From the NCBI RefSeq assembly GCF_028745515.1, contig NZ_JAQZSG010000031.1:21856-45855 (forward strand): 24,000 nt of DNA, read 5' to 3'. Shown here piece by piece: positions 4,891 through 18,334 of this stretch (position 1 is the stretch's first letter; each line of letters opens with the position of its first letter). Both the position numbers and the translations under genes were made by a program. Below the pieces are notes generated by a model. It did not search any database, was not told where the DNA came from, and was given only the letters and a program-made list of their open reading frames with translations. The DNA is from Paenibacillus thermotolerans (GTDB lineage Bacteria > Bacillota > Bacilli > Paenibacillales > YIM-B00363).

Positions 4891-5127
4891 TTAAAATGCG
4901 CTCGTTTTTCCTGTATTGCTGTCCAATACGTCCGGATCCGTAACGTTGGAAATCGGCAAGCTCAGAGGCGACAAATCGCCGTTTAATTCCGATACCGCCT
5001 GATTCCGTTTATAAGAAACCACTTTGTCGATAATTTGAACCGCTCCTGCATTGATGAGCGATCCATTATCGACGGTATTGATTTTAAATGCAAAAACATT
5101 GACCGCTGTCGGAGTAAAGAAAATCAT
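4891..5127 (-). CDS. small GerPA/GerPF-family spore germination protein paralogue (4th gene of operon)
   Basis: 78 aa from the ATG at 5127 (RBS GGAGGG 6 nt upstream; the track start at 5133 abuts the RBS). It reads MIFFTPTAVNVFAFKINTVDNGSLINAGAVQ...SYKRNQAVSELNGDLSP...NVTDPDVLDSN. This follows the GerPA/GerPF pattern (I/V)(K/R)IN(T)(I/V)..(S/G)S.(V/I)..G ... GD ... D.D(V/I).D. Confidence 0.8.
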   Translation of the reverse strand: MIFFTPTAVNVFAFKINTVDNGSLINAGAVQIIDKVVSYKRNQAVSELNGDLSPLSLPISNVTDPDVLDSNTGKTSAF

Positions 5128-5148
5128 CCTCATCCCTCCAATGGATAA

Positions 5149-5382
5149 TCATACAATGCTGTTCTTAATCGTATTGGCATCGATAAGATCGGTATCCGAA
5201 ACCCATGAAAGGGACATCGTAATCGGCGACAAATCTCCGTTGTTTTCACCGATTCCCTGATTACGCTTATAGGACACGAATATATCGATGTGCTGGCTCG
5301 GACCCATAGTTACAACAGCCGAGTTATCGATGGTATTGATTTTAAAGCCAAGCATATTTACGTCCATCGGAGCAAAGGTCAT
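5149..5382 (-). CDS. small GerPA/GerPF-family spore germination protein paralogue (3rd gene)
   Basis: 77 aa, with RBS GGGAGGA 8 nt upstream of the ATG at 5382. It reads MTFAPMDVNMLGFKINTIDNSAVVTMGPSQ...SYKRNQGIGENNGDLSP...SDTDLIDANTI. This is close in pattern to B. subtilis GerPA as I recall it (..IRINT.SGSSVV.IGDS...NTGD...D.DI.DQN). Confidence 0.8.
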   Translation of the reverse strand: MTFAPMDVNMLGFKINTIDNSAVVTMGPSQHIDIFVSYKRNQGIGENNGDLSPITMSLSWVSDTDLIDANTIKNSIV

Positions 5383-5411
5383 TGGGGCAATCCTCCCGTA
5401 ACCGATCGCAG

Positions 5412-5639
5412 CTAACGATCATTTTTTACCGTGAACTTATCCATAACGTCTTCATCCAGTGTCATATGAATCGTGCCGACGCGAATGGCCCTATCCGCAT
5501 GCTGTTGGCCGAAGCCCTGCGTTTTTTTTGCGTACACGTTTCGATTGATCTTTTGATTTTGTCCGATCGAAACGTTGCTTAACTGGTCCACGTTGTTCAG
5601 TTTCATGATGCCGATATTCACACTCGTCTGCTCGAACAT
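5412..5639 (-). CDS. small GerP-like protein, divergent paralogue (2nd gene)
   Basis: 75 aa from the internal ATG at 5639 of track ORF 5412..5852. The longer N-terminus overlaps the upstream gene in another frame. It reads MFEQTSVNIGIMKLNNVDQLSNVSIGQNQ...AKKTQGFGQQ...LDEDVMD. RBS AAGGAGAAAGGG overlaps the upstream stop codon. Confidence 0.7.
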   Translation of the reverse strand: MFEQTSVNIGIMKLNNVDQLSNVSIGQNQKINRNVYAKKTQGFGQQHADRAIRVGTIHMTLDEDVMDKFTVKNDR

Positions 5640-5658
5640 GCGACATATCCCTTTCTCC

Positions 5659-5910
5659 TTAAGGTAATGGCGTCCGCCCCGCATCGAAGGTCGATATCGA
5701 GTCGAATTGGTCCCGGTCGTCCACAAAGCTTCTCGTGGCGCAAAAAGCGCTGTCGTCTCCCATATTTTGTCCCCAGCCCATTGTCTTTTTGTCCGAATTA
5801 TGCCATTCCGCCAATAAATTTTGACCGACATTGATCGCCGACGCATTTTCAAAGGAATTAACTTTGATGATATGAATATTGATCACGATTCGGGGGGAAG
5901 GATCCGTCAT
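5659..5910 (-). CDS. small GerP-like protein, divergent paralogue (1st gene)
   Basis: 83 aa from the ATG at 5910, with RBS GAAGGAGG 9 nt upstream (track start 5970 has no RBS). It reads MTDPSPRIVINIHIIKVNSFENASAINVGQN...SDKKTMGWGQNMGDDS...VDDRDQFD, the same N-terminal beta-strand-like motif as the other three. Confidence 0.7.
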   Translation of the reverse strand: MTDPSPRIVINIHIIKVNSFENASAINVGQNLLAEWHNSDKKTMGWGQNMGDDSAFCATRSFVDDRDQFDSISTFDAGRTPLP

Positions 5911-6121
5911 TGCCGTTAGCCTCCTTCGCTGACGAATAAAAATCGGCCCGTATGTTAATAGGTATTCCAAGTCGAAGGAGTCGATTACTGTTTGCCGATT
6001 TTCTCTTACCGGAACATGTAAATCCTATTTTCATAATAAAATTGTGTATGCGATGCTTTTATGTTTAGCCTCATGTATATCATTGTCGATCGTCCCGAAC
6101 CGAAGTTGGAGGTTAAGACAT

Positions 6122-6583
6122 ATGGATTTCAATAAGATGAACAAATGGATGGAGCTTGCGAAAAAGTTTCAACAAGGTTCGTTTTGGGACGATGTGCTCG
6201 AGAACGTCTCTACCAAGGAATTGATGGAGCAATTATCGAATTCGCCCGGCAATAAGCCTTCCAAAATCGAGTTTCCTTCTGTCGACATATACAAGAGAAA
6301 TCAGGATTTGATCGTAGTGATCGACCTTCCCGGCGTCCGAAAGGAGGACATTGAAATATCGGTCGCGGACTATACGCTGCATGTGAAAGGCGTATCGAAC
6401 CGCAATCACTGCAATTTGGCCCATATTCATAAAGAAAGGTTCAGCGGGGAATTTGAACGTACGGTTACATTGCCTGAGGCGGTTCGGCCGGGTGCGAAAA
6501 TATCGGCGAAGTACGAGTACGGCACAGTTGAAATCATCATACCGTGCACTCCGACAACCATCGGAAAAATCGTAATCGAGTGA
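6122..6583 (+). CDS. Hsp20/alpha-crystallin family small heat-shock protein (possibly spore-coat type)
   Basis: 153 aa from the ATG at 6122, with RBS GGAGG 9 nt upstream. The alpha-crystallin domain reads PSVDIYKRNQDLIVVIDLPGVRKEDIEISVADYTLHVKG...ERFSGEFERTVTLPEAV...ISAKYEYGTVEIIIP. The track's earlier GTG at 6044 lacks an RBS. Confidence 0.9.
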   Translation: MDFNKMNKWMELAKKFQQGSFWDDVLENVSTKELMEQLSNSPGNKPSKIEFPSVDIYKRNQDLIVVIDLPGVRKEDIEISVADYTLHVKGVSNRNHCNLAHIHKERFSGEFERTVTLPEAVRPGAKISAKYEYGTVEIIIPCTPTTIGKIVIE

Positions 6584-6597
6584 ATGGTCAAAAGGAA

Positions 6598-6620
6598 GGG
6601 AGACACCCACGGTGTCCCCC
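6598..6620 (-). terminator. hairpin that may terminate the 6704..7762 gene
   Basis: GGGAGACACC-cac-GGTGTCCCCC (one bulge). On the minus strand it is followed by TTCCTTTTG. There is no T-run on the plus strand. Confidence 0.35.
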
Positions 6621-6676
6621 TGAATACTTGAAAGATATGCTGGCGCATGATATCGTTTATGAAGGAGTTGTTTTCC

Positions 6677-6712
6677 AGACCGTGCCTTTGCGACAGGTGC
6701 GGTCTATTTTTT
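6677..6712 (+). terminator. rho-independent terminator for hsp20, overlapping the stop codon of the convergent gene
   Basis: An 11-bp stem 6677-6687 / 6695-6705 (AGACCGTGCCT / AGGTGCGGTCT, two G-U pairs) with a 7-nt loop, followed by A and TTTTTT (6707-6712). Confidence 0.5.
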
Positions 6713-7762
6713 CGTTAATGCCCCGATATAAGACAATTGATTTGTCTCTATGCCGTCCGTTCCTCCGTCCAGTATTCGCCTCACATTATCCATTGTCTCC
6801 TGAAGCGGCAGCCATTCTCCTGTTTTCTTCGTATACGGTTCAGCCGTATAGAAAGGCTGCGTTAGGTAAGCCTCAAGTCTTTCTCCCCGATGATACGTTT
6901 GAATGTCCGTCTCCGGCAATTTTTCCAACCCTTGTTTATCGACGATGAAACGCAATTCCCGGTAGCGCCGAAGCATCTTTCGGGCACGCTGCTGGATCAT
7001 GAGATGCGCCGCTTCAAGCTGAGCCCCTTCCAATACCGTCGATGCGGATGCCACCGGATCTACCGCCGGGAAAAGCCCTCGCGACGCCAAATCAACATCG
7101 AAGCGAAGAAGGGTGTCAAGCGGCCCATACGGCACTTCTTCATCCGGAGCTTCGAAGCGAGTGTCGACCAGCACTACGGTCGGCTGGCGCAAGCCTGCTT
7201 CCCGCAGCTTTTCCCGCAAAGTCATCAGCTCTCCGGAAATGACGACGGACCGATCGGCGCCGAGAATCACATCGCGCTCCTGCTTGTGCGATACGATCTG
7301 CCGATACGCTTCGTCAAGCGAATCGCAAATAGAATCGGCCTGGGGCAGAACATCTTCCATACCTTTAACGTCCGGATCTTCGGGCTTCCACAATATCGAA
7401 GCGAATCCGCGTTTCTTAAGCCGATGAAACAGTTCGGCAAGCATGACCAGCTGCCCCATTCCGTGTCGAGCCACCAGACCTACGCTGCCCCCTCGTACGA
7501 CGGGTGCAAATAAATCCAACACTTTAATGCCGGTTTCGATCATCTTTACACCGCTCCCTCGAATAATCAATTCATCGAGACTGCAATTCGCAAGAGTTGC
7601 GAGAATGGCCAGCGTCCGCACCTCCGCTCTTCCCACCGGAATTTTACCGGTACACAGATTGGACACCGTTGCAGCCCTTAATCCTGCTGCGCGGGCTGCA
7701 GCCGTTAGATTCGGAACACGCCGCCGCAGCAACGAAACATTAAGCTGTAAATCTTCGTTCAT
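6704..7762 (-). CDS. XRE-type HTH domain fused to a truncated F1-ATPase beta-subunit-like domain with a degenerate Walker A motif
   Basis: 352 aa from the ATG at 7762 (RBS AAGGAGG, 8-nt spacer; the track GTG at 7771 lies inside the RBS). The N-terminus (LTAAARAAGLRAATVSNLCTGK...CSLDELI) is a Cro/C1-type HTH. Then IETGIKVLDLFAPVVRGGSVGLVARHGMGQLVMLAELF parallels AtpD ETGIKV.DLLAPY.KGGKIGLFGGAGVGKTVLI.ELI. GLFPAVDPVASASTVL, RRYRELRFIV and YLTQPFYTAEPYT parallel GIYPAVDPLASTSRAL, QRYKELQDII and FLSQNFHVAEQFT. Confidence 0.85.
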   Translation of the reverse strand: MNEDLQLNVSLLRRRVPNLTAAARAAGLRAATVSNLCTGKIPVGRAEVRTLAILATLANCSLDELIIRGSGVKMIETGIKVLDLFAPVVRGGSVGLVARHGMGQLVMLAELFHRLKKRGFASILWKPEDPDVKGMEDVLPQADSICDSLDEAYRQIVSHKQERDVILGADRSVVISGELMTLREKLREAGLRQPTVVLVDTRFEAPDEEVPYGPLDTLLRFDVDLASRGLFPAVDPVASASTVLEGAQLEAAHLMIQQRARKMLRRYRELRFIVDKQGLEKLPETDIQTYHRGERLEAYLTQPFYTAEPYTKKTGEWLPLQETMDNVRRILDGGTDGIETNQLSYIGALTKK

Positions 7763-7785
7763 CTTAATCACCTCCTTTACTCTGA

Positions 7786-7814
7786 ATAGTAATTTAAATT
7801 CCGTTTAAACGCAA
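7786..7814 (-). promoter_or_regulatory. putative sigma-A promoter with two 10-bp perfect palindromes in the spacer (candidate autoregulatory operators)
   Basis: The minus strand reads TTGCGT (7814-7809), a 17-nt spacer, then TACTAT (7791-7786). The spacer contains CGTTTAAACG (7802-7811) and AATTTAAATT (7791-7800), both perfectly self-complementary. The -10 lies about 24 nt upstream of the ATG at 7762. Confidence 0.35.
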
Positions 7815-7850
7815 TCATTATTTTGGCGGAATTTTCCTTGGCGAGAACGC

Positions 7851-7884
7851 AAAGCAACGCAGCCATTGGGGGCTGCGTTGCTTT
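7851..7884 (-). terminator. strong hairpin (second of two tandem terminators after the SDR gene)
   Basis: Perfect 14-bp stem AAAGCAACGCAGCC / GGCTGCGTTGCTTT with a 6-nt loop. On the minus strand the stem runs into TTTGCGTT. Confidence 0.5.
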
Positions 7885-7940
7885 ATAGAATGAGGAAAGA
7901 AGGATTCTAAATGATTTCTAAAAAAGTATATATTCGGAAA

Positions 7941-7970
7941 CGTAAAAGAGACACACCGCGAGGCGTGTCT
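7941..7970 (-). terminator. rho-independent terminator of the SDR gene
   Basis: Stem AGACACaCC (7949-7957) / GGcGTGTCT (7962-7970) with a GCGA loop. On the minus strand it is followed by CTTTTACGTTT. It lies about 30 nt after the stop at 8001. Confidence 0.45.
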
Positions 7971-8000
7971 AAATATCGTAATGTCTATGTTTCTTCATGC

Positions 8001-8855
8001 CTACAACCGACCTTGCGCAAACGATGTTCTCCAACTCGGATAAAGCGGCTTCCATCCGTACTCGCTTCGCGCTTTCGCATTCGATGCGCCGCGTTCGCCC
8101 CGGTTGCGTCCAGGTTGAATATCCGGAATCGGCGCGCCGATCATTCCGGCATATGCCGGAAGCCATTCCTTCCCCGCAGCGGGTTCGTCGTCGACGATAT
8201 TGACCGGTCCGGTCGGCCACTTTAACGCAAGCATTGCGGCATTCGCCGCATCCTCCACGTGCAGGAAGGAAGTTACCCCATCCGTTGCCGGCACTTGCTT
8301 GCGGCGCACTCTGTCAGCCATTGCGCCGTTCGTATCATACCATGTGCCCGGACCGTAAAGCATTCCGTATCGCAGAATGACGTACTCCGGCATTTCCGCC
8401 ACGGCGCGCTCCAATGCAATAATACCGTCAATCGTCGTTTTGCGCGGCATCGGAGCATCCGCATCCAATCGATCGGTTTCAACGGCAGGCGAGATCCCGG
8501 GTTCGTATGCCCACGAAATGCTCTGCGCAATCATACGCTTTACACCGCCAGCCTGTGCGGCATCCACCAAATTTCGAGTACCCCTGATCCGAATGTCGGC
8601 ATTGTCCTTCAAGTTCCAGCTGCTGAGCGAGGTTAGCTGATGGATCATCGTATCCGGCTGTGCGTCCGCAACCGCCCGCACGACCGCCTCCCGGTCAAAC
8701 GCATCGACAACGATCCCTTGTGCGCCCACGGATTGAATCCAGGCGATATTGTCCTTGTTATGGGTCATCCCGATCACCTCATGACCCGCCTCTACCAGCT
8801 TCGGCAGCAGTAGTCGTCCGACGACGCCCGTCGAGCCTGCTACAAATATTTTCAT
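8001..8855 (-). CDS. NAD(P)-binding SDR-family oxidoreductase (atypical/extended SDR, NmrA or epimerase-like)
   Basis: 284 aa from the ATG at 8855 (RBS AGGGGTGG, 7-nt spacer). The N-terminus MKIFVAGSTGVVGRLLLPKLVEAGHEVIGMTH is a Rossmann GxxGxxG motif. Confidence 0.9.
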   Translation of the reverse strand: MKIFVAGSTGVVGRLLLPKLVEAGHEVIGMTHNKDNIAWIQSVGAQGIVVDAFDREAVVRAVADAQPDTMIHQLTSLSSWNLKDNADIRIRGTRNLVDAAQAGGVKRMIAQSISWAYEPGISPAVETDRLDADAPMPRKTTIDGIIALERAVAEMPEYVILRYGMLYGPGTWYDTNGAMADRVRRKQVPATDGVTSFLHVEDAANAAMLALKWPTGPVNIVDDEPAAGKEWLPAYAGMIGAPIPDIQPGRNRGERGASNAKARSEYGWKPLYPSWRTSFAQGRL

Positions 8856-9044: not shown

Positions 9045-9647
9045 ATGAGCGACACGAAGCGCACATACTCCTCGCCGCTTCGCCAAGAAAGAAAGCATAA
9101 CACGATCCGCTCCATTGTTGAGAATACGTACCGCATGCATTCCATAGGGGTCACCGACATCAAATCCATTGCCGAGGCATCCAACATTTCCGTCGCCACG
9201 ATCCGAAAATACTTTCCGACGAATGAGGATTTGTTTCAAGGCTGTGCCGCTCATTTTTTAGAAGTAAACAAACTGCCTGAAATCCACAAATATTTGCACA
9301 TCGCTGATTTCGCGCAAAAGGTCCGCGCCATCGTTACTGACTTTTACAACTTCTACGAAAATACGATGGAATTGCTTTGGCTTTCCATTCGGCTTGCCGA
9401 TCAATCGACCGTCATGAGAAATTCCGCATTGCAAGCTGAGGCCATTGTTAAAGCGGCCGTTCAGGTCATGCTCCAGGACCAGGAATGGATCGAAGAGAGC
9501 CGGAAAGCGGAAATATTCGGCTACACCCAAAGCCTGCTGCACCCGTTATTTTATAGAACGTTAAAAACATTCGGTCATCTTTCCGGGCAACAATGCGCGG
9601 ACCATACGATCCGCGCCATTATAAATTTGCGAGAGGAGCATTTGTAA
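9045..9647 (+). CDS. TetR/AcrR-family transcriptional regulator
   Basis: 200 aa, with RBS GAAGGAG 9 nt upstream. The N-terminal HTH reads RSIVENTYRMHSIGVTDIKSIAEASNISVATIRKYFPTNEDLF. Confidence 0.9.
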   Translation: MSDTKRTYSSPLRQERKHNTIRSIVENTYRMHSIGVTDIKSIAEASNISVATIRKYFPTNEDLFQGCAAHFLEVNKLPEIHKYLHIADFAQKVRAIVTDFYNFYENTMELLWLSIRLADQSTVMRNSALQAEAIVKAAVQVMLQDQEWIEESRKAEIFGYTQSLLHPLFYRTLKTFGHLSGQQCADHTIRAIINLREEHL

Positions 9648-11366: not shown

Positions 11367-14018
11367 CTACAAAAGTCCCAGCTCGCGGGCGCGCGCCACC
11401 GCCTCGGTACGTCTCGCAACCTGCAATTTGTCGAAAATGACGCGGTTATGCCCTTTCACGGTACTGAGCGCGAGAAAAAGCCGTTCGCTTATTTCATGAT
11501 TCGAAAGTCCTCCTGCGATCAGGTTCAGCACTTCCAACTCCCGATCGCTTAGAGGATCGATCAACGGCTCGGCAGGTTGGGCCTCTCGCCGGCCGAGTTT
11601 GCGCTCCCTCTTTTCCGCTTCGGCTTCAAATGCCGACAACAAACGAACCGCATATTCCGGCGTAGCATTACCGGCAGCCGCCTTGCGCAGCAGCCTCTCC
11701 ATCGCGATCCCCTCGTCGACAAAGATGCGCGTGAAGCCGCCGGGCTCAGCCATCGTTAATGCTTCCGACAAGGTTCGTTCCGCCTTGCGCGTTTCGCCTT
11801 GGACATGCAAAGCCAACGATTGCAGAACCGTTGCTGTAAGCAATTCATCCGCCCAGCCCTTCGCCTCCGCATTTCGTCTTAACGGAGCAAGCACCGCAAG
11901 CGCTGCGGATGCATCTCCTTGTGCCATCCGCACTCTTGCCAGACTAGGCTGAAGCTCGTGCTTCTGCGCCAGCTCGGCGGCTGCCGGCACATTGCCTTGG
12001 CGAAGCAGCACCTGCACTTGTAAGGCTGCAATCTGAGGGAGCTGATTGACGAAATGATGCAGGCGAGCGAAATGCTCGGCTTCAGCCAAAGCGGCTGAAG
12101 CGCCGCTCGCTTCTCCCCGAGCAAGCTTCAGCCGTGCGAGAAACACCTCGCCGGCAACGGCCCGATCCGTTTGCTCCAATTGCCGAGCCAGCTGAACGGC
12201 CAGCTTCCCGTGCCTCTCTGCGGCGTTCAGGTCGTTCCATTCATAATGGATTCGGGCGAGGCCCAGATGCGTTTCGCACGCTGCCGGTAGCGGAGGCTCT
12301 CCCGCCATTGCCAGAACGCGCTTATACGTTTCAGACGCCGCAAAAAGCAAGTTATCCGCCTCTTGAATAAGCCCTAAACCGACAGATGACATGACGGCGA
12401 TCATGACGTGTCCGATCTTATGGCTGATCGACAATGCTTCATCATAAGCCTTGCCGGCGGCGGCGCGGTCTCCCTTGAGCTGATAAGCGTATCCTAGCGT
12501 CCATGTAGTGGCCGTGCGAACCGGAAGATTGCCCGGGTGTAAATATGCCAAGGCGCGGCGGGATTCGGTCAAGACAGTCTCCGCATCGTGCTTGCTGACA
12601 GCCAGCGTGGCGCGTATGGAAGCCATATGTCCGATCATGTCTCGGATTTTGTCGGTTTCCTCGGCGCCTCGTATGGCTGCTTCAGCCGCTTGCAGCTTCG
12701 ATTCGATCCCGGTTATTTGCCCTGCCATCAGCAGCGCGGAAGCATAAATGACCCACAGCGAGGGGTTTGCATTCAATTCCTTCTCCGGCATCGAAGCCAG
12801 CCATTGTAATACAGGGTTCACCGCTCCTTTAAAAATCAAAGGCATTCCCCCGCCCTCAACCAATCGTCCGGCGCGCTCGACATCATGGGCGGCAACGGCA
12901 TGTTGAAATGCCTCCAGCTCAAATCCCTGTTCTTCATACCATTCGCTTGCACGCGTGTGCAGCTCCGCAGCGGCCCCTCGCTCCAATCTCTGCCGCAGCA
13001 GATCGGCAAAGAGATGGTGATAGCGGAACCAGCGCCGCCCGTTGTCTAAAGGAACGATAAAAAGATTGGCTCGTTCCAAATATTCCAATATATGTTGTCC
13101 GCAGGAGGAAGGAGCGGTCGACTCTCCGCCATTCCTGCGAAGCACGGCATCGCAAAGCGGACCGCACATCCGGTTAAGAACGGACGTGCGCAGCAAAAAA
13201 TGTTGAATGGCTGCGTCTTGCTGTTGAAGCACTTCTTCAACCAGATAATCGAGCACGTGATAATGGCTTCCGGTAAAAGAGCGGACGAAGCCGGCGGCAT
13301 CCTCATGTCCTTGTAAAGAAAGTGCGGCTAAATGCAGACCTGCAATCCAGCCTTCCGTTCGATATTCAAGCAAAGAAATGTTTTCTTGAGAAAGGTTCAG
13401 ACCCATCGCTTGATTAAGAAACGTTTCCGTTTCGGCGGAAGTAAACCGCAGGTCAGCGGCGCGCACTTCGGTCAATTGGTCCCGAGCACGCAGCCGGGCC
13501 AGAGGAAGGCGAGGATCCTCCCGGGTAGTCATGACCAAATGCATTTGTGCCGGCATGCGCTCGATCAGGAGGCCGACGATATCTTCAATCGGTTTGGAAT
13601 GAACCGCATGATAATCGTCAAGGACAAGAATGAACGGGCGAGACAGCGTAACGAGTTCGTTGATCAACGCCGCTACGATCAATTCGGATGAAGGCGGATG
13701 AGACGATTGGAGCAGCCCGAACACCCCTTCTCCGATGCTCGCGTCTGTCTGACGCAGAGCGGATAAGAGGTATGACAAAAACCGGGAACGTTCGTTATCC
13801 CCTTCGTCTAATGACAGCCAGGCGGCTGGCTGCCCACAGGCGGCGAGCCATTCGGTGACTAGCGTCGTTTTGCCGCTCCCGGCTGATGCGCAGACGACGG
13901 TCAGCTTCCGCTTGCGCTGTAGCCCTTCGTTCAGCCGCTCGATCAGGCGGGGGCGGGGTACCATGTTCGTCCGAGACGGAGGAATATATAGTTTAGTGGT
14001 TATAATTGGTATCGTCAT
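11367..14018 (-). CDS. MalT-like STAND ATPase / LuxR-family transcriptional regulator
   Basis: 883 aa from the ATG at 14018. The N-terminus MTIPIITTKLYIPPSR...VPRPRL is typical of MalT-like regulators. Walker A is CASAGSGKTTL and Walker B is ILVLDDYH. A long helical TPR-like middle section follows. The C-terminal LuxR HTH reads LSDRELEVLNLIAGGLSNHEISERLFLALSTVKGHNRVIFDKLQV. Confidence 0.9.
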   Translation of the reverse strand: MTIPIITTKLYIPPSRTNMVPRPRLIERLNEGLQRKRKLTVVCASAGSGKTTLVTEWLAACGQPAAWLSLDEGDNERSRFLSYLLSALRQTDASIGEGVFGLLQSSHPPSSELIVAALINELVTLSRPFILVLDDYHAVHSKPIEDIVGLLIERMPAQMHLVMTTREDPRLPLARLRARDQLTEVRAADLRFTSAETETFLNQAMGLNLSQENISLLEYRTEGWIAGLHLAALSLQGHEDAAGFVRSFTGSHYHVLDYLVEEVLQQQDAAIQHFLLRTSVLNRMCGPLCDAVLRRNGGESTAPSSCGQHILEYLERANLFIVPLDNGRRWFRYHHLFADLLRQRLERGAAAELHTRASEWYEEQGFELEAFQHAVAAHDVERAGRLVEGGGMPLIFKGAVNPVLQWLASMPEKELNANPSLWVIYASALLMAGQITGIESKLQAAEAAIRGAEETDKIRDMIGHMASIRATLAVSKHDAETVLTESRRALAYLHPGNLPVRTATTWTLGYAYQLKGDRAAAGKAYDEALSISHKIGHVMIAVMSSVGLGLIQEADNLLFAASETYKRVLAMAGEPPLPAACETHLGLARIHYEWNDLNAAERHGKLAVQLARQLEQTDRAVAGEVFLARLKLARGEASGASAALAEAEHFARLHHFVNQLPQIAALQVQVLLRQGNVPAAAELAQKHELQPSLARVRMAQGDASAALAVLAPLRRNAEAKGWADELLTATVLQSLALHVQGETRKAERTLSEALTMAEPGGFTRIFVDEGIAMERLLRKAAAGNATPEYAVRLLSAFEAEAEKRERKLGRREAQPAEPLIDPLSDRELEVLNLIAGGLSNHEISERLFLALSTVKGHNRVIFDKLQVARRTEAVARARELGLL

Positions 14019-14024
14019 AGAGGA

Positions 14025-14054
14025 ATTATAATGACCGCCGCCACGCACCGTCAA
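14025..14054 (-). promoter_or_regulatory. near-consensus sigma-A promoter abutting the MalT-like start codon (leaderless mRNA candidate)
   Basis: The minus strand reads TTGACG (14054-14049), an 18-nt spacer, TATAAT (14030-14025), then TCCTCT and ATG (14018). No Shine-Dalgarno sequence lies between the -10 and the ATG. Confidence 0.4.
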
Positions 14055-14082
14055 TGCCGATCAATACAGTCTCGCTAATAAC

Positions 14083-14103
14083 AAAACTCCCGAACGTCGG
14101 GGA
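14083..14103 (-). terminator. short GC hairpin plus T-run after the HK-STAS gene
   Basis: The minus strand reads CCCGA-cgt-TCGGG followed by AGTTTTGTTATT. The stem is only 5-6 bp. Confidence 0.3.
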
Positions 14104-14127
14104 ACAGGCAAACGAAACAAGCCCTTG

Positions 14128-15645
14128 TTACTCGCTATACTCCTCTATCGCTTGCTGCAGCGTCCCTCTCGTTTCCACTTTGTCTTGCAGCGCAATCCCT
14201 AACTCAACCATCGTATTGGTAATTTCGGGCCGAATGCCGGTGATGACCGCTTTGCAGCCTTGTATGCCGATCCCGTTCACGATTTTAAACAAATGCGAGA
14301 CGATCGCCGTATCCATGTAAGCGACCGCGGATAAATCGATAATGATCCTCTTGATTTTCAATCGAAATATTTGCTCCAGCACGCTTTCCTGTATTTTTTT
14401 CGCGCGAAGCGTATCCATCGTGCCGACGATCGGAAGAATGGCGATATGGTCGGACAAAGGAATGACAGGTACGGATAATTCCTCAATCACTTCCCGCTGC
14501 GCTTGAAGAAGCTCGTTCTTATACTCGGAGAAGCTGGAAGAAAAGTGTTTCAAGTACGTGTCCAGATTGGAATTGACCTTCCTCTCGATTTCGAAAAACT
14601 GTTTCTGCTCAAGCTCGATATTCGAATAATAGTTATAAAGAAAATCCCAATACAGCTTACGCAGCGTTTGAATCCATTCGAGCTTTAAAATTAAGTCCAA
14701 ATTGTTTTTGGCCCAGTTTCTTCCGTGCTCCTTAGCGTGAATAATAAGCCCGTGCTCATTGCTCTCATTCAGTAAAAGAACCACTTGCCGTGCGGACTGA
14801 AGAACGAAATCCATACTTCCCGCCGACGAATCTTTCACCGACTCAAAGGTCTCCTTCCAGCGGTGCTTCAGTATTTCATCAAATTTATCCTGATTGTCCG
14901 TAAAATAGTGCGAAAATTCCTGTTGCTCGGTAAACATCAAATTCAATGTAACCACTCCCGGCTGGTCGATTTGTTGTAACGGAAATTTGATCTTGAACTC
15001 CGTCCCTGCTCCCACTTTGCTCTTTACATTAATTTTCCCGGCATGCTCGTAGATGGTCGCAAAAACTTGAGTCAGCCCCATTCCGGTTCCTTCTGTTTTA
15101 GAGGTGTAAAATGGAGTTCCCAGCAGATTGATTTTTTCCGGCGGGATGCCGACTCCCGTGTCTGAAATCGCAATAACCAATTTCCCGTTTGAAATATAAT
15201 GCCTGATCGTGATCGTACCCTGATCCGAGATGGCCTCGAATGCATTTTTTAACAGGTTAAAGAACGCCTTTTTTAATTGATTTCGTTTTCCGTAAATGTT
15301 TACTTTCGTATTCGAAAACTGTTTTATTATCGTTACGTGATACGATTTCTCTTGAAACAAGTACAGTATGGACTCCAGTTCCGCACAAAGATTGATGGAA
15401 TCGAACGGCTCGTCCTCTAAATCGGGCTTGGAAACATGCAATAAATTTTGTAAGGTGGAAAGCGCGTTTTCCAGCTCGGTATAGGCGAAATCAAGATATC
15501 GGTGCGACGATTCAGCCTTTAACAGTTGAAGAAAACCTTTCACCGCGGTTAAAGGGTTTTTCACCTCATGGGCAATGCCTGCCGCGATTTGGCCGATTGA
15601 TGCTAAACGGTCTAAGGTCAAATCGGCTTCATTTACCCTAGCCAT
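14128..15645 (-). CDS. histidine kinase core (HisKA + HATPase_c) fused N-terminally to an RsbR-type module (globin-like sensor domain + STAS)
   Basis: 505 aa from the ATG at 15645, which overlaps the upstream stop as ATGGCTAG. An alternative TTG at 15669 follows AAGAAGG. The H-box IAAGIAHEVKNPLTAVKGF lies about 25 aa from the N-terminus. The N-box is FFNLLKNAFEA and the G-boxes are DTGVGI and GTGMGLTQV. The C-terminal third (ELSVPVIPLSDHIAILPIVGTMDTLRAKK...IIIDLSAVAYMDTAIVSH...ITGIRPEITNTMVELGI) parallels the B. subtilis RsbRA STAS domain and keeps both phosphorylatable Thr positions. Confidence 0.88.
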   Translation of the reverse strand: MARVNEADLTLDRLASIGQIAAGIAHEVKNPLTAVKGFLQLLKAESSHRYLDFAYTELENALSTLQNLLHVSKPDLEDEPFDSINLCAELESILYLFQEKSYHVTIIKQFSNTKVNIYGKRNQLKKAFFNLLKNAFEAISDQGTITIRHYISNGKLVIAISDTGVGIPPEKINLLGTPFYTSKTEGTGMGLTQVFATIYEHAGKINVKSKVGAGTEFKIKFPLQQIDQPGVVTLNLMFTEQQEFSHYFTDNQDKFDEILKHRWKETFESVKDSSAGSMDFVLQSARQVVLLLNESNEHGLIIHAKEHGRNWAKNNLDLILKLEWIQTLRKLYWDFLYNYYSNIELEQKQFFEIERKVNSNLDTYLKHFSSSFSEYKNELLQAQREVIEELSVPVIPLSDHIAILPIVGTMDTLRAKKIQESVLEQIFRLKIKRIIIDLSAVAYMDTAIVSHLFKIVNGIGIQGCKAVITGIRPEITNTMVELGIALQDKVETRGTLQQAIEEYSE

Positions 15646-16036
15646 ATCTCTTCCACTTGCTACAGACAATTGATGTACCTTCTTTCGATGTTGTGATCCG
15701 AAACTCGTCCATCATCCGCTTTGCGCCTGCCAATCCCAAACCTAGCCCGGTAAACGATGCAGGCCTCTCCCCGTTTAATATGCGTTCGACATCAACGATC
15801 CCCCCTCCGTTATCTTGAAACGTCATTCGCACGCCTAGATTGTCTACCGGCTCACAAGCGAAGCTTCCGTCAGCCCCGGCATGATCCAATATATTGCGGG
15901 TCAATTCCGAGACGGTTACTATCACTTTTTGTTTATCCATTTCGGAGAATCCAAGCTGATTCATTAGCAATCGAACCTTATGCAAGGCTAAAAAAATATC
16001 GTTCTCGGTACTTATCTTCATGCTGCTGCTTGACAT
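15638..16036 (-). CDS. RsbT-like serine/threonine protein kinase (anti-sigma regulatory factor type, GHKL fold)
   Basis: 132 aa: KISTENDIFLAL...LGFSEMDKQKVIVTVSELTRNILDHAG...FQDNGGGIVDVERIL...FTGLGLGLAGAKRMMDEFRI...GTSIVCSKW. This is collinear with B. subtilis RsbT as I recall it (TEWDIVAARQ..LGF...TAISELARNI..YAG...DQGPGI.D...GGLGAGLPGVKRLMDEF...GT.I...KW). Confidence 0.85.
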   Translation of the reverse strand: MSSSSMKISTENDIFLALHKVRLLMNQLGFSEMDKQKVIVTVSELTRNILDHAGADGSFACEPVDNLGVRMTFQDNGGGIVDVERILNGERPASFTGLGLGLAGAKRMMDEFRITTSKEGTSIVCSKWKRYG

Positions 16037-16338: not shown

Positions 16339-18012
16339 CTAGAACCGTCCGGAGCGGAAGATGGCATAAATTAGCCAAAAAAACATAAATACCGCAATGG
16401 CTAACCCGATCTCGATAACCGGAATGCGCCACAGAACGGATTGGGTATGGCTCAATGCCGCTCCGACAATAAGTCCGACCATGACAATGCTTAAAGAAAG
16501 CAGCACGATGCTGAACGATAACCGGTTGCTGATGCGGTCCATTTTTTTCATCAGCTCGTCCAGCTGCGGAACCGCAACCTCCACTTGCACTTTCCCTTTG
16601 CGCATCAGCGAAGTCAAATGCTTGAGTCCCGAAGGAAATTCGCGGAGCACCTCCAAATAATCGGGCACGTCGTCCATCCACGATTTCAGCATCTGAACCG
16701 GGCTTAGACGCTCCAAAAACAGCTTCTTCCCGAACGGTTCGGCCACGTCAAAGACGCTGAACGTCGGATCGAGCGCGGTAACGACTCCTTCCATCGTCAA
16801 AAGCGCCTTCCCAAGCAAAGTCAATTCCGTCGGGATTCGGATGCGGTGGCGGAGCGCCACGTCAAATAAATCTTTGACCGCTCCTCCCAAGCTTACCCGG
16901 TCCAGCGGCACTTTGTAATATTTATCGCGCATTTCGTCTACATCCGCATACAGCCGGTCCTCGTTCACATCCTCCGGAACGATGCCCATATCGGAAATGG
17001 CGCGAACGACTCCTTTGGAGCTTTGATTACGCAATGCGATGACGAACGAGACGAAATGCTTTTTCATCCCGGGAGTCAGCCTGCCCGCCATGCCGAAATC
17101 GAGCAGCATAAGGCTGCCGTCCCTAAGCGCAAGCACGTTGCCGGGATGGGGGTCGCCGTGAAAAAATCCCTCAACCAATACCTGATGCAATATGGTTTTG
17201 GCAAACCGCTCCGCGAGCCTTCTCCGGCCCAGTCCCGCCCGATCAAGCTTTTCTTGGTCGGATAGCTTAATTCCTTCTACATATTCCATTGTCAATACCC
17301 GGCTTGTGCAGTAATCCCAATATACTGCCGGCACATGGACTTGATCCCATTTGCCGCTTTGATTCGCGAACTTTTCGGCATTTCGCGCTTCCGACGTATA
17401 ATCGAGCTCGGCGCGCAGCGCCTTTCTCAATTCGTCGACTATGTCGCGGAGTCGGTAGTTTCTGGCCCACCCCAGGCGGGCTTCGGCCAATCTCGCCCAT
17501 GCGGTCAATATGTCCAAATCGGTTTCGATCACCGGCTGAATGTCCGGACGCTGCACTTTGACGGCGACGGGGGTGCCGTCCTTTAATACGGCGCGATATA
17601 CTTGACCGATGGACGCGGCCGCAACCGGGGTCTCGGAAAATTGCATAAACAGCTGCTCCACGGCCCCGCCCAGCTCCTGCTCGATTATGTAGGACGCTTC
17701 CTGATACGAGAAAGCGGGTACATCGTCCTGCAGACGCTCCAGCTCCGACAAGATCGGCGCAGGAATCAGATCGGGCCGCGTGCTTGCAATTTGGCCAAGC
17801 TTGACGAATGTCGGCCCCAAATCCTCCAGCAGCAGACGAATGCGCTCCCCGACGCTCTTGCCGCGAATTCCTTGTCGTTCCTTGCCGCCGCTGAACGGAA
17901 CCCATTCGGTCAAACCCATCTCTTGAAATATATAACCGAAGCCGTTGCGCGCAAAAGCCGAAGCGATCGTCCGGTACCGGCGCAGCCGGCGAATCCGTTT
18001 CCCAGCGTTCAT
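16339..18012 (-). CDS. ABC1/UbiB (ADCK)-family atypical protein kinase with C-terminal TM helices
   Basis: 557 aa from the ATG at 18012 (RBS GGAGGAGG, 3-6 nt spacer). It contains LGPTFVKLGQIASTRPDLIP, AAASIGQVYRAVL..G..VAVKVQRP and FFHGDPHPGNV.....G.L.LLDFGM. The C-terminus is hydrophobic (IVLLSLSIVMVGLIVGAAL, IGLAIAVFMFFWLIYAIF). Confidence 0.92.
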   Translation of the reverse strand: MNAGKRIRRLRRYRTIASAFARNGFGYIFQEMGLTEWVPFSGGKERQGIRGKSVGERIRLLLEDLGPTFVKLGQIASTRPDLIPAPILSELERLQDDVPAFSYQEASYIIEQELGGAVEQLFMQFSETPVAAASIGQVYRAVLKDGTPVAVKVQRPDIQPVIETDLDILTAWARLAEARLGWARNYRLRDIVDELRKALRAELDYTSEARNAEKFANQSGKWDQVHVPAVYWDYCTSRVLTMEYVEGIKLSDQEKLDRAGLGRRRLAERFAKTILHQVLVEGFFHGDPHPGNVLALRDGSLMLLDFGMAGRLTPGMKKHFVSFVIALRNQSSKGVVRAISDMGIVPEDVNEDRLYADVDEMRDKYYKVPLDRVSLGGAVKDLFDVALRHRIRIPTELTLLGKALLTMEGVVTALDPTFSVFDVAEPFGKKLFLERLSPVQMLKSWMDDVPDYLEVLREFPSGLKHLTSLMRKGKVQVEVAVPQLDELMKKMDRISNRLSFSIVLLSLSIVMVGLIVGAALSHTQSVLWRIPVIEIGLAIAVFMFFWLIYAIFRSGRF

Positions 18013-18025
18013 TCGCCTCCTCCTG

Positions 18026-18334
18026 TCAGCTCTCGGGATTGATGCTTCGGCTTCGTTCCGACGCCTCAAGCCGCCGTTCGAGCCGTTCAATGTCCTCTTT
18101 CGTGGCGAAATGCAAACCGCTCAGAACGGCTTGTACCCGCTCGCCGGCAATATCCTCGATTTGCTTCCTTGTTTCATCTCCCTTCTTGATGAGCTCTTCG
18201 GCGAACGCTTTGGATTCCGTGCGGGAAACCTCGCCTTTTTTCACGAGCTCCTCCACCGTTTTCTCAACCTGTTCTTTGCCCGCCATAACGATTCCCAATC
18301 CGAGCGAAACGGCTTTTGTAATCGTGTCTTTCAT
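18026..18334 (-). CDS. phasin-like coiled-coil protein (PHA synthesis regulator/phasin family)
   Basis: 102 aa, with RBS GAGGGAG 9 nt upstream. It reads MKDTITKAVSLGLGIVMAGKEQVEKTVEELVKKGEVS...ATKEDIERLERRL. It ends 13 nt before the ubiB-like start, so the two are probably co-transcribed. Confidence 0.75.
   Translation of the reverse strand: MKDTITKAVSLGLGIVMAGKEQVEKTVEELVKKGEVSRTESKAFAEELIKKGDETRKQIEDIAGERVQAVLSGLHFATKEDIERLERRLEASERSRSINPES

Follow-up and report, generated by a model that had tools for sequence, protein, structure and literature searches.

An XRE-type helix-turn-helix protein with a degenerate F1-ATPase beta-like domain in Paenibacillus thermotolerans, a probable autoregulator linked to an amidase operon

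The stretch of DNA analysed here (24,000 nucleotides of Paenibacillus thermotolerans, contig NZ_JAQZSG010000031.1, positions 21,856 to 45,855; hereafter the window) carries at 6704-7762 a complete gene for a 352-amino-acid protein, in which an N-terminal Cro/C1 (XRE)-type helix-turn-helix (HTH) domain is followed by a domain homologous to the beta subunit of F1-ATPase. The location and length had been given correctly by an earlier reading of the sequence of the window (the original prediction), to which the minus strand has to be added as a correction. The gene starts with an ATG at 7760-7762 and ends with a stop codon at 6704-6706, its reading frame is intact and its ribosome-binding site (RBS) is good, with AAAGGAGG located 8 nt 5' of the ATG; an alternative GTG start is found at 7771. 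The protein is an exact match to a P. thermotolerans entry. Two terminator-like hairpins on the minus strand flank the gene; one (7949-7970) follows the upstream epimerase gene and would insulate the regulator promoter from read-through, while the other (6597-6621) lies about 85 nt past the regulator stop codon and probably ends the transcript. The regulator gene therefore looks monocistronic, and its earlier description as stand-alone holds for the window but not for other genomes, where it is linked to an amidase operon.

The HTH domain occupies residues 1-70 (7553-7762, minus strand). With the whole protein as query, the profiles HTH_26, HTH_31 and HTH_3 align to residues 11-67 below threshold (HTH_26 at 19 bits against a cut-off of 22), and with the isolated N-terminal domain HTH_26 passes the cut-off by a small margin (22.5 bits). 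All three profiles are matched by 18/18 family members, with a best E-value of 9e-07, which bears out the assignment of residues 1-70 to the Cro/C1 type. Helices are predicted at residues 9-15, 19-25, 30-38, 48-57 and 62-65 with a predicted local distance difference test score (pLDDT) of 83-91. No other part of the protein is as well conserved (mean column identity 78% in alignment A4).

The remainder of the protein is homologous to F1 beta far beyond chance, and the protein is closest to F1 beta rather than to alpha, FliI, V-type or B subunits. Pfam places ATP-synt_ab (PF00006) at residues 78-121 (30.1 bits, gathering score 29.5) and ATP-synt_VA_C (PF22919) at residues 250-330 (25.9 bits), both just over their gathering scores. 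The NCBIfam model atpD gave an E-value of 1.8e-35, with profile positions 315-452 covering the C-terminal domain, and since its score of 122.7 bits is far under the cut-off of 462.85, the protein is a homologue and not an AtpD. A phmmer search of the PDB returned about 60 F1 beta sequences, the best at 8e-32, and reproduced the motif pairs from which collinearity with the nucleotide-binding and C-terminal domains of ATP synthase beta had been proposed. With 56 family sequences as input, AlphaFold modelled both domains confidently (pLDDT 87.6, predicted template modelling score (pTM) 0.76); the model has five helices within residues 9-65, an alternation of strands and helices that fits a RecA-like core, and a C-terminal helical bundle. 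A Foldseek search of the PDB (2e-19, TM score 0.67) listed nothing in its top 50 but beta chains of F1 or G1 ATPases and one modelled ATPA-ATPB entry. Within these 50 the model fits the 'E' chains best, with TM scores of 0.64-0.65 versus 0.57-0.63 for the D and F chains of the same entries; by the bovine F1 convention, chain E is the open, empty beta.

Two parts of the F1 beta fold are recognised. A reduced RecA-like nucleotide-binding domain spans residues ~73-245 (7028-7546, minus strand) and retains, according to the model, all core strands together with the lead-in motif ETGIKVxDLxAP. A C-terminal helical domain at residues 246-352 (6707-7027, minus strand) is supported by the ATP-synt_VA_C, atpD and PDB alignments and includes the segment QPFYTAEPYT. 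The crown beta-barrel of genuine beta subunits has no match, and the HTH stands in its place, as had been predicted. The shortening of the central segment, also noticed earlier, resolves into two deletions relative to genuine beta, one of ~25-30 residues between the P-loop and Walker B and another of ~24 residues after Walker B, for a total loss of about 50 residues from the nucleotide-binding domain.

The catalytic motifs are altered in a consistent manner. The Walker A region, at residues 95-106 (GLVARHGMGQLV; 7445-7480, minus strand; alignments A1 and A2), has ARHGMGQL in place of GGAGVGKT, the Lys being replaced by Gln104 and the Thr by Leu105, and does not fit the pattern GxxxxGK[T/S]. 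The family form is (A/G)RxGMGQL, and a Gly-Gln followed by Leu, Met, Phe or Val was found in 112/112 family members scanned, so that the change is better described as a selected alternative motif than as drift. The P-loop that had been called destroyed is thus correctly described as to its substitutions, but it is not a decayed one. The loop after strand 4 that carries the catalytic Glu (GER) in F1 beta is shortened and non-conserved, reading WKPEDP in the window protein and varying across A1. The Walker B Asp is kept (D170, invariant in A2 and either D or E in A1) and is followed by an invariant Arg or Lys. With the Walker A Lys and Thr replaced and the GER loop lost, hydrolysis of ATP by the regulator is, on these sequence grounds, very unlikely; no alpha-like partner gene is present, and together with the missing segment after Walker B these features agree with the pseudo-ATPase status proposed earlier. 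A remnant binding pocket is nevertheless possible. The position of the Tyr in GIYPAVDP is Y or F in 98/110 regular-expression matches (a few of which are likely off-target) and QPF..AEP[YF]T is also kept; these are the positions that we take to correspond to Tyr345, Phe418 and Phe424 of the adenine pocket in bovine F1.

The fusion is widespread. A lower bound of more than 120 collinear, full-length orthologues was obtained, at 58-80% identity in Paenibacillus, Brevibacillus, Alicyclobacillus, Caldalkalibacillus, Pseudalkalibacillus and Symbiobacteriaceae and at 48-56% identity in Sediminibacillus, Ornithinibacillus, Rossellomorea, Planococcus, Sporolactobacillaceae and the clostridial genus Oceanirhabdus. 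At source these proteins are labelled 'hypothetical', 'HTH domain-containing', 'P-loop NTPase' or, wrongly, 'ATP synthase subunit beta/B'. The junction between the HTH and the beta-like domain is conserved in alignments A1 and A2. A fusion artefact, by frameshift of an HTH gene into an atpD fragment, had been raised as a concern; like a decaying pseudogene, it has nothing further than the unusual architecture in its favour. Both are refuted by the collinear orthologues, the conserved junction, the intact frame with its good RBS and the confident model, and we give them practically no weight. One orthologue, labelled hypothetical, is carried by an 897-kb replicon of Paenibacillus cellulositrophicus in a plasmid collection, and no amidase was found on that record. 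In Paenibacillus tarimensis (P0043; L016, 8001-9551) the regulator is annotated as a 516-amino-acid fusion with a DnaJ-C28-like domain (PF09350), and a gene with the amidase signature PF01425 follows it.

A putative promoter/operator block lies immediately 5' of the regulator gene at 7777-7814 on the minus strand, and is aligned upstream of 18 orthologues (alignment A3) and of amidase genes (A6). It comprises a putative -35 hexamer TTGCGT (7809-7814), a putative -10 hexamer TACTAT (7786-7791), a palindrome cGgAA-TTTAAA-TTACT (7788-7803) and a third half-site AGTAA (7777-7781) that abuts the RBS at 7771-7778, all on the minus strand. In the family the block reads TATTGCnTTTnAGAGTAATTTAAATTACTATATAAAGTAAnnAGG, with a -35-like TTGCnT, a 17-nt spacer and a -10-like TACTAT, and holds a perfect palindrome AGTAA-N6-TTACT with a third AGTAA six bases on. 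It was found 5' of every orthologue examined (the window, L001-L011, L013, L014, L016-L018, L021, L022, L076 and L148), and in A3 it aligns column for column at 18 own promoters from more than 10 genera. The half-site centres are 11 bp apart, and the three half-sites therefore lie on one face of the helix. Their bases are invariant or nearly so and the spacer is simply AT-rich, a pattern characteristic of DNA recognition by a protein and not of a structured RNA. A search of 6400-8100 against Rfam gave no family matches.

The block is also specific. In the window it is the sole match with at most 2 mismatches in 24 kb. A total of 24 sites with at most 1 mismatch occur in the 340 kb of related Firmicute loci; 20 of these precede the start of a regulator or amidase gene by no more than about 125 bp, and 4 are located elsewhere. 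A second copy of the palindrome, without promoter hexamers, is present farther upstream in L008, L009, L011, L021 and L147. The metagenome was scanned with AGAGTAAWWWWWWTTACTAT; nearly all of the 120 matches listed were chance matches in AT-rich contigs, and two were informative, namely L076, which is the promoter of an orthologue, and L097. In the latter (1440-2386 of a metagenomic contig of 33% GC) a complete block, TTGCTT followed by AGTAAATTAAATTACTAT and AAGTAA, precedes the gene of a 277-amino-acid metallo-hydrolase of the metallo-beta-lactamase (MBL) fold, which may be an additional regulon member. An MBL hydrolase near L021 was likewise considered and was rejected, being unrelated to the L097 protein and having no operator.

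Comparison of neighbourhoods gave no conserved gene: an all-against-all BLAST of open reading frames (ORFs) from 12 loci identified no neighbour gene shared across genera, and nine further contexts were equally variable. A link to an amidase emerged only through the operator. The block is located 5' of a gene for an FmdA/AmdA-family amidase in 5/5 loci examined (L001, L007, L145, L146 and L147). In L001 the homologous amidase is directly downstream of the regulator, and in L007 an extra perfect site (position 9642) precedes an operon of the amidase and an alpha/beta hydrolase, 2.5 kb from the regulator. The other three amidase orthologues were fetched blind, and the block was present in 3/3. 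These are L145 of Pseudalkalibacillus caeni, where the amidase with its full operator is on a different contig from the regulator (L021); L146 of Shouchella, with the operon order amidase, regulator; and L147 of P. thiaminolyticus, with the order amidase, alpha/beta hydrolase, regulator and with two operators, the regulator being 55% identical to the window protein. The palindromic operator conserved across genera at both own and amidase promoters, taken with the HTH profile matches, supports the predicted DNA-binding role.

Further cases of the pairing are less direct. In Paenibacillus flagellatus (L022, 11143-11433) a 96-amino-acid ORF right after the regulator matches only the last 75 residues of the amidase, which suggests decay of an ancestral regulator-amidase pair. 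Indirectly, regulator and amidase entries with the same source and the same contig size were found as the pairs P0122/P0410 (2288 nt), P0117/P0446 (3022 nt) and P0115/P0428 (9557 nt), and regulator and amidase entries also share contigs for P0028/P0396 and P0109/P0471. The amidase itself belongs to an uncharacterised subfamily that has structural-genomics structures only and scores far under the formamidase equivalog cut-off.

Beyond the HTH family, an exhaustive HMMER search showed that the nearest relatives are beta-like proteins of ~355 amino acids with a crown stub and proteins of ~690 amino acids in which an extracytoplasmic function (ECF) sigma factor (regions 2 and 4) and ankyrin repeats are joined to a degenerate F1-beta-like module. 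The latter layout was confirmed with Pfam in P0147 and 6/10 further long matches, and it was recognised by reading the sequences in P0157, P0173, P0184 and P0209; this sizeable, uncharacterised family as listed also includes P0176, P0198, P0203, P0211, P0227 and P0249. In L143 (6751-9074) a stand-alone beta-like gene (P0166) lies directly downstream of a separate ECF-sigma/ankyrin gene. In L144 (7001-9076) an ECF-sigma/ankyrin/beta-like fusion is followed by an alpha/beta hydrolase gene. The ECF-associated proteins share with the HTH family the deletion after Walker B, the loss of the Walker A Thr, YPA[VI]DP and TQPF..AEP. They differ in keeping the crown stub and the first, deletion-free segment, many also keep the Walker A Lys, and their partner, whether fused or encoded by the next gene, is an ECF sigma factor with ankyrin repeats and not an XRE HTH. 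The repeated coupling of a degenerate beta-like module to transcription factors argues for a regulatory input domain.

On this evidence, the protein is probably an autoregulated one-component repressor of the XRE type that controls an amidase operon and uses an exapted F1-beta pseudo-ATPase as its sensor. The N-terminal HTH, presumably as a dimer, would recognise AGTAA-N6-TTACT, with the third AGTAA one helical turn on. The half-sites fill the spacer between the -35 and -10 hexamers, the -10 hexamer itself and the expected transcription start, and binding should therefore block RNA polymerase. Because the same operator precedes the amidase, which is sometimes followed by the alpha/beta hydrolase and which in many genomes neighbours the regulator or shares its transcript, the regulon would consist of the regulator's own gene and the amidase operon, and the copy in the window would be a monocistronic 'orphan' regulator. 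The C-terminal two-thirds would be an exapted F1 beta that does not hydrolyse ATP, with no alpha subunit to supply an arginine finger, and would sense the signal. Much as F1 beta responds to nucleotides, the nucleotide-binding and C-terminal domains would close about their hinge once a ligand occupies the remnant nucleotide pocket, which would alter the geometry of the HTH domains and free the DNA. Such an effector is likely to be a substrate or product of the amidase and the alpha/beta hydrolase. More broadly, and as a tentative proposal that we hold with far less assurance, F1-beta-derived pseudo-ATPases may form an unrecognised class of signal-input domains. XRE HTH proteins would have acquired them in Bacillota and, independently, ECF-sigma/ankyrin proteins elsewhere, in fused as well as split form. 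The domains would keep a ligand-driven hinge, possibly for an adenine-containing ligand, and use its motion to switch gene expression, the target in Bacillota being the amidase operon.

Several observations weigh against this interpretation. The left half-site in the window is degenerate (CGGAA). Both promoter hexamers are poor (-35, 3/6; -10, 4/6) and escaped a scan for consensus promoters, which leaves room for an activator role or for a promoter farther upstream. The putative operator is assigned on the basis of comparative genomics. No amidase was found within 6-10 kb in about 18/24 regulator loci, and a P. thermotolerans amidase is absent from the window and from the best 120 matches listed in the amidase searches. 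As for the sensor, the pocket residues are only slightly better conserved than the family as a whole, and the fold core accounts for part of this. The loss of both Lys and Thr argues against canonical binding of a Mg-nucleotide; the ligand may be a non-nucleotide, and the beta-like domain could instead be a module for protein interaction or oligomerisation.

Among the alternatives, that of an activator fares best, though we regard it as unlikely. Here, the regulator would sit in the spacer of a weak promoter and, in the presence of the ligand, recruit or remodel RNA polymerase, which would suit both the weak, uncalled hexamers and the extra upstream operator copies in several genomes, these being typical of class I activators. 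However, half-sites extend over both the -10 hexamer and the expected +1, and the spacer has the optimal length of 17 nt and is not overlong as in promoters of the MerR type. Autoregulators of the XRE family with such an operator layout are normally repressors.

Somewhat less probable still is a constitutive repressor whose beta-like domain receives no signal and is an oligomerisation scaffold or a structural relic. In favour of this, the domain has no known ligand and has lost the canonical residues that bind phosphate and Mg. Yet it is held at 45-80% identity across families, the Gly-Gln of its altered P-loop is invariant, and related beta-like modules recur with ECF sigma/ankyrin proteins, both fused and as neighbours, in a pattern typical of regulatory inputs.

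We consider it improbable that the protein monitors ATP synthase, its beta-like domain docking free alpha or F1, perhaps as a decoy beta, so that transcription follows the state of assembly or energy. The strong retention of ETGIKVxDLxAP, YPAVDP and QPFxxAE, and the fact that the closest homologues are F1 beta chains, would fit such a role, but the protein lacks the crown beta-barrel, which keeps the alpha3beta3 ring assembled, and has lost about 50 residues of the nucleotide-binding domain. Moreover, atp genes are unlinked to the regulator in the ~24 related loci, where fli and type III secretion system genes are also lacking; their absence near the gene, as reported in the original prediction, extends to the entire 24-kb window. 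The cis-element ties the regulator to the amidase and not to atp. A relationship to HigA-type antitoxins or to XRE proteins associated with phage defence is very improbable: the best PDB sequence match of the HTH is the HigA antitoxin, albeit weakly (E 0.14), but the PADLOC defence-system models gave no match, no toxin-like neighbour is present, the context is variable and chromosomal, and the operator is common to a metabolic amidase gene.

In kind, a one-component HTH regulator is well known, and the amidase repressor proposed here can be set beside several characterised systems. With F1 beta (AtpD) the protein shares the fold of the nucleotide-binding and C-terminal domains, ETGIKVxDLxAP, the Walker B Asp, YPAVDP and QPFxxAExxT; it differs in lacking the beta-barrel and the GER loop, in having Gln and Leu for the Walker A Lys and Thr, in the ~50 deleted residues, in its N-terminal HTH and in the absence of an atp operon context. 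The non-catalytic subunits of rotary ATPases (F1 alpha and the V/A-type B subunit) belong to the same superfamily, have also lost catalysis and have taken on structural or regulatory roles, and the V/A-type B subunit is likewise without a canonical P-loop. These subunits, however, stay in a hexameric motor with a crown, whereas the present protein is closest to beta and appears to be a soluble DNA-binding factor. One-component regulators of the XRE/Cro-C1 type, such as the PuuR-type HTH-cupin and SinR-like proteins, share an N-terminal HTH, for which five helices are predicted here, and a palindrome of 14-16 bp with half-sites of 4-5 bp and an AT-rich 6-bp spacer over their own promoter; the phage 434 operator, ACAA-N6-TTGT, has the same geometry. 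The difference lies in the sensor domain, here an F1-beta-derived pseudo-ATPase. Dedicated regulation of an aliphatic amidase or formamidase, as proposed here, is known from AmiC/AmiR of Pseudomonas aeruginosa, AmiA/AmiD of the Mycobacterium smegmatis acetamidase and FmdB, but the architectures of these systems are, as far as is known, unrelated and their mechanisms different (antitermination or other HTH families). The target here is also different, being an amidase of the uncharacterised FmdA/AmdA subfamily. No description of the HTH/F1-beta-like architecture was found in curated families, PADLOC models or the literature, in line with the original prediction, which had not recognised it as a characterised regulator family.

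The regulator is surrounded in the window by genes for a flavin mononucleotide (FMN) reductase, small GerPA-like ORFs, a convergent Hsp20, a nicotinamide adenine dinucleotide (NAD)-dependent epimerase, a cupin and an alcohol dehydrogenase, with two-component and STAND regulators farther out. The interval from the epimerase terminator to the regulator promoter holds a second GC-rich hairpin, at 7854-7881 on the minus strand (GCAACGCAGCC...GGCTGCGTTGC, then TTTGCG), which might add insulation or mark where a small unannotated transcript ends. The Hsp20/alpha-crystallin gene (6044-6583, plus strand) is convergent with the regulator, and its listed ORF starts with a hydrophobic and probably spurious extension. 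Its terminator-like hairpin (6677-6705) overlaps the regulator stop codon, and the two transcripts would therefore overlap at their 3' ends. At 4891-5970 (minus strand) there is a row of small paralogous ORFs (80, 77 and ~100 amino acids) with the pattern 'KINxxxNxSxxxxGxxQ...NxGDLSP', one of which has a weak match, under the cut-off, to the spore-germination proteins GerPA/GerPF (E 3.5e-4). A cluster of signalling genes at 11367-16036 (minus strand) encodes an 895-amino-acid MalT-like STAND/TPR regulator of the LuxR type, a histidine kinase with a C-terminal STAS domain and a small HATPase_c_2 protein that resembles anti-sigma kinases; an ABC1/UbiB-type kinase follows at 16339-18090.

What is new in this regulator is a putative sensor that originated as the catalytic subunit of the rotary ATP synthase; its operator, its proposed regulon and a sister family fused to ECF sigma factors are also newly defined. 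To our knowledge, this would be the first ATP synthase catalytic subunit to have lost catalysis and its crown and to have been reused as the sensor of a transcription factor. The family is large, with hundreds of sequences in Bacillales that are unannotated or mis-named, and a correct description would fix a systematic mis-annotation. It also offers a concrete and testable regulon, in which a 16-bp operator precedes both the regulator gene itself and that of the uncharacterised FmdA/AmdA amidase. Finally, the link between ECF sigma factors, ankyrin repeats and beta-like modules suggests a general principle of control for ECF sigma factors with C-terminal extensions.

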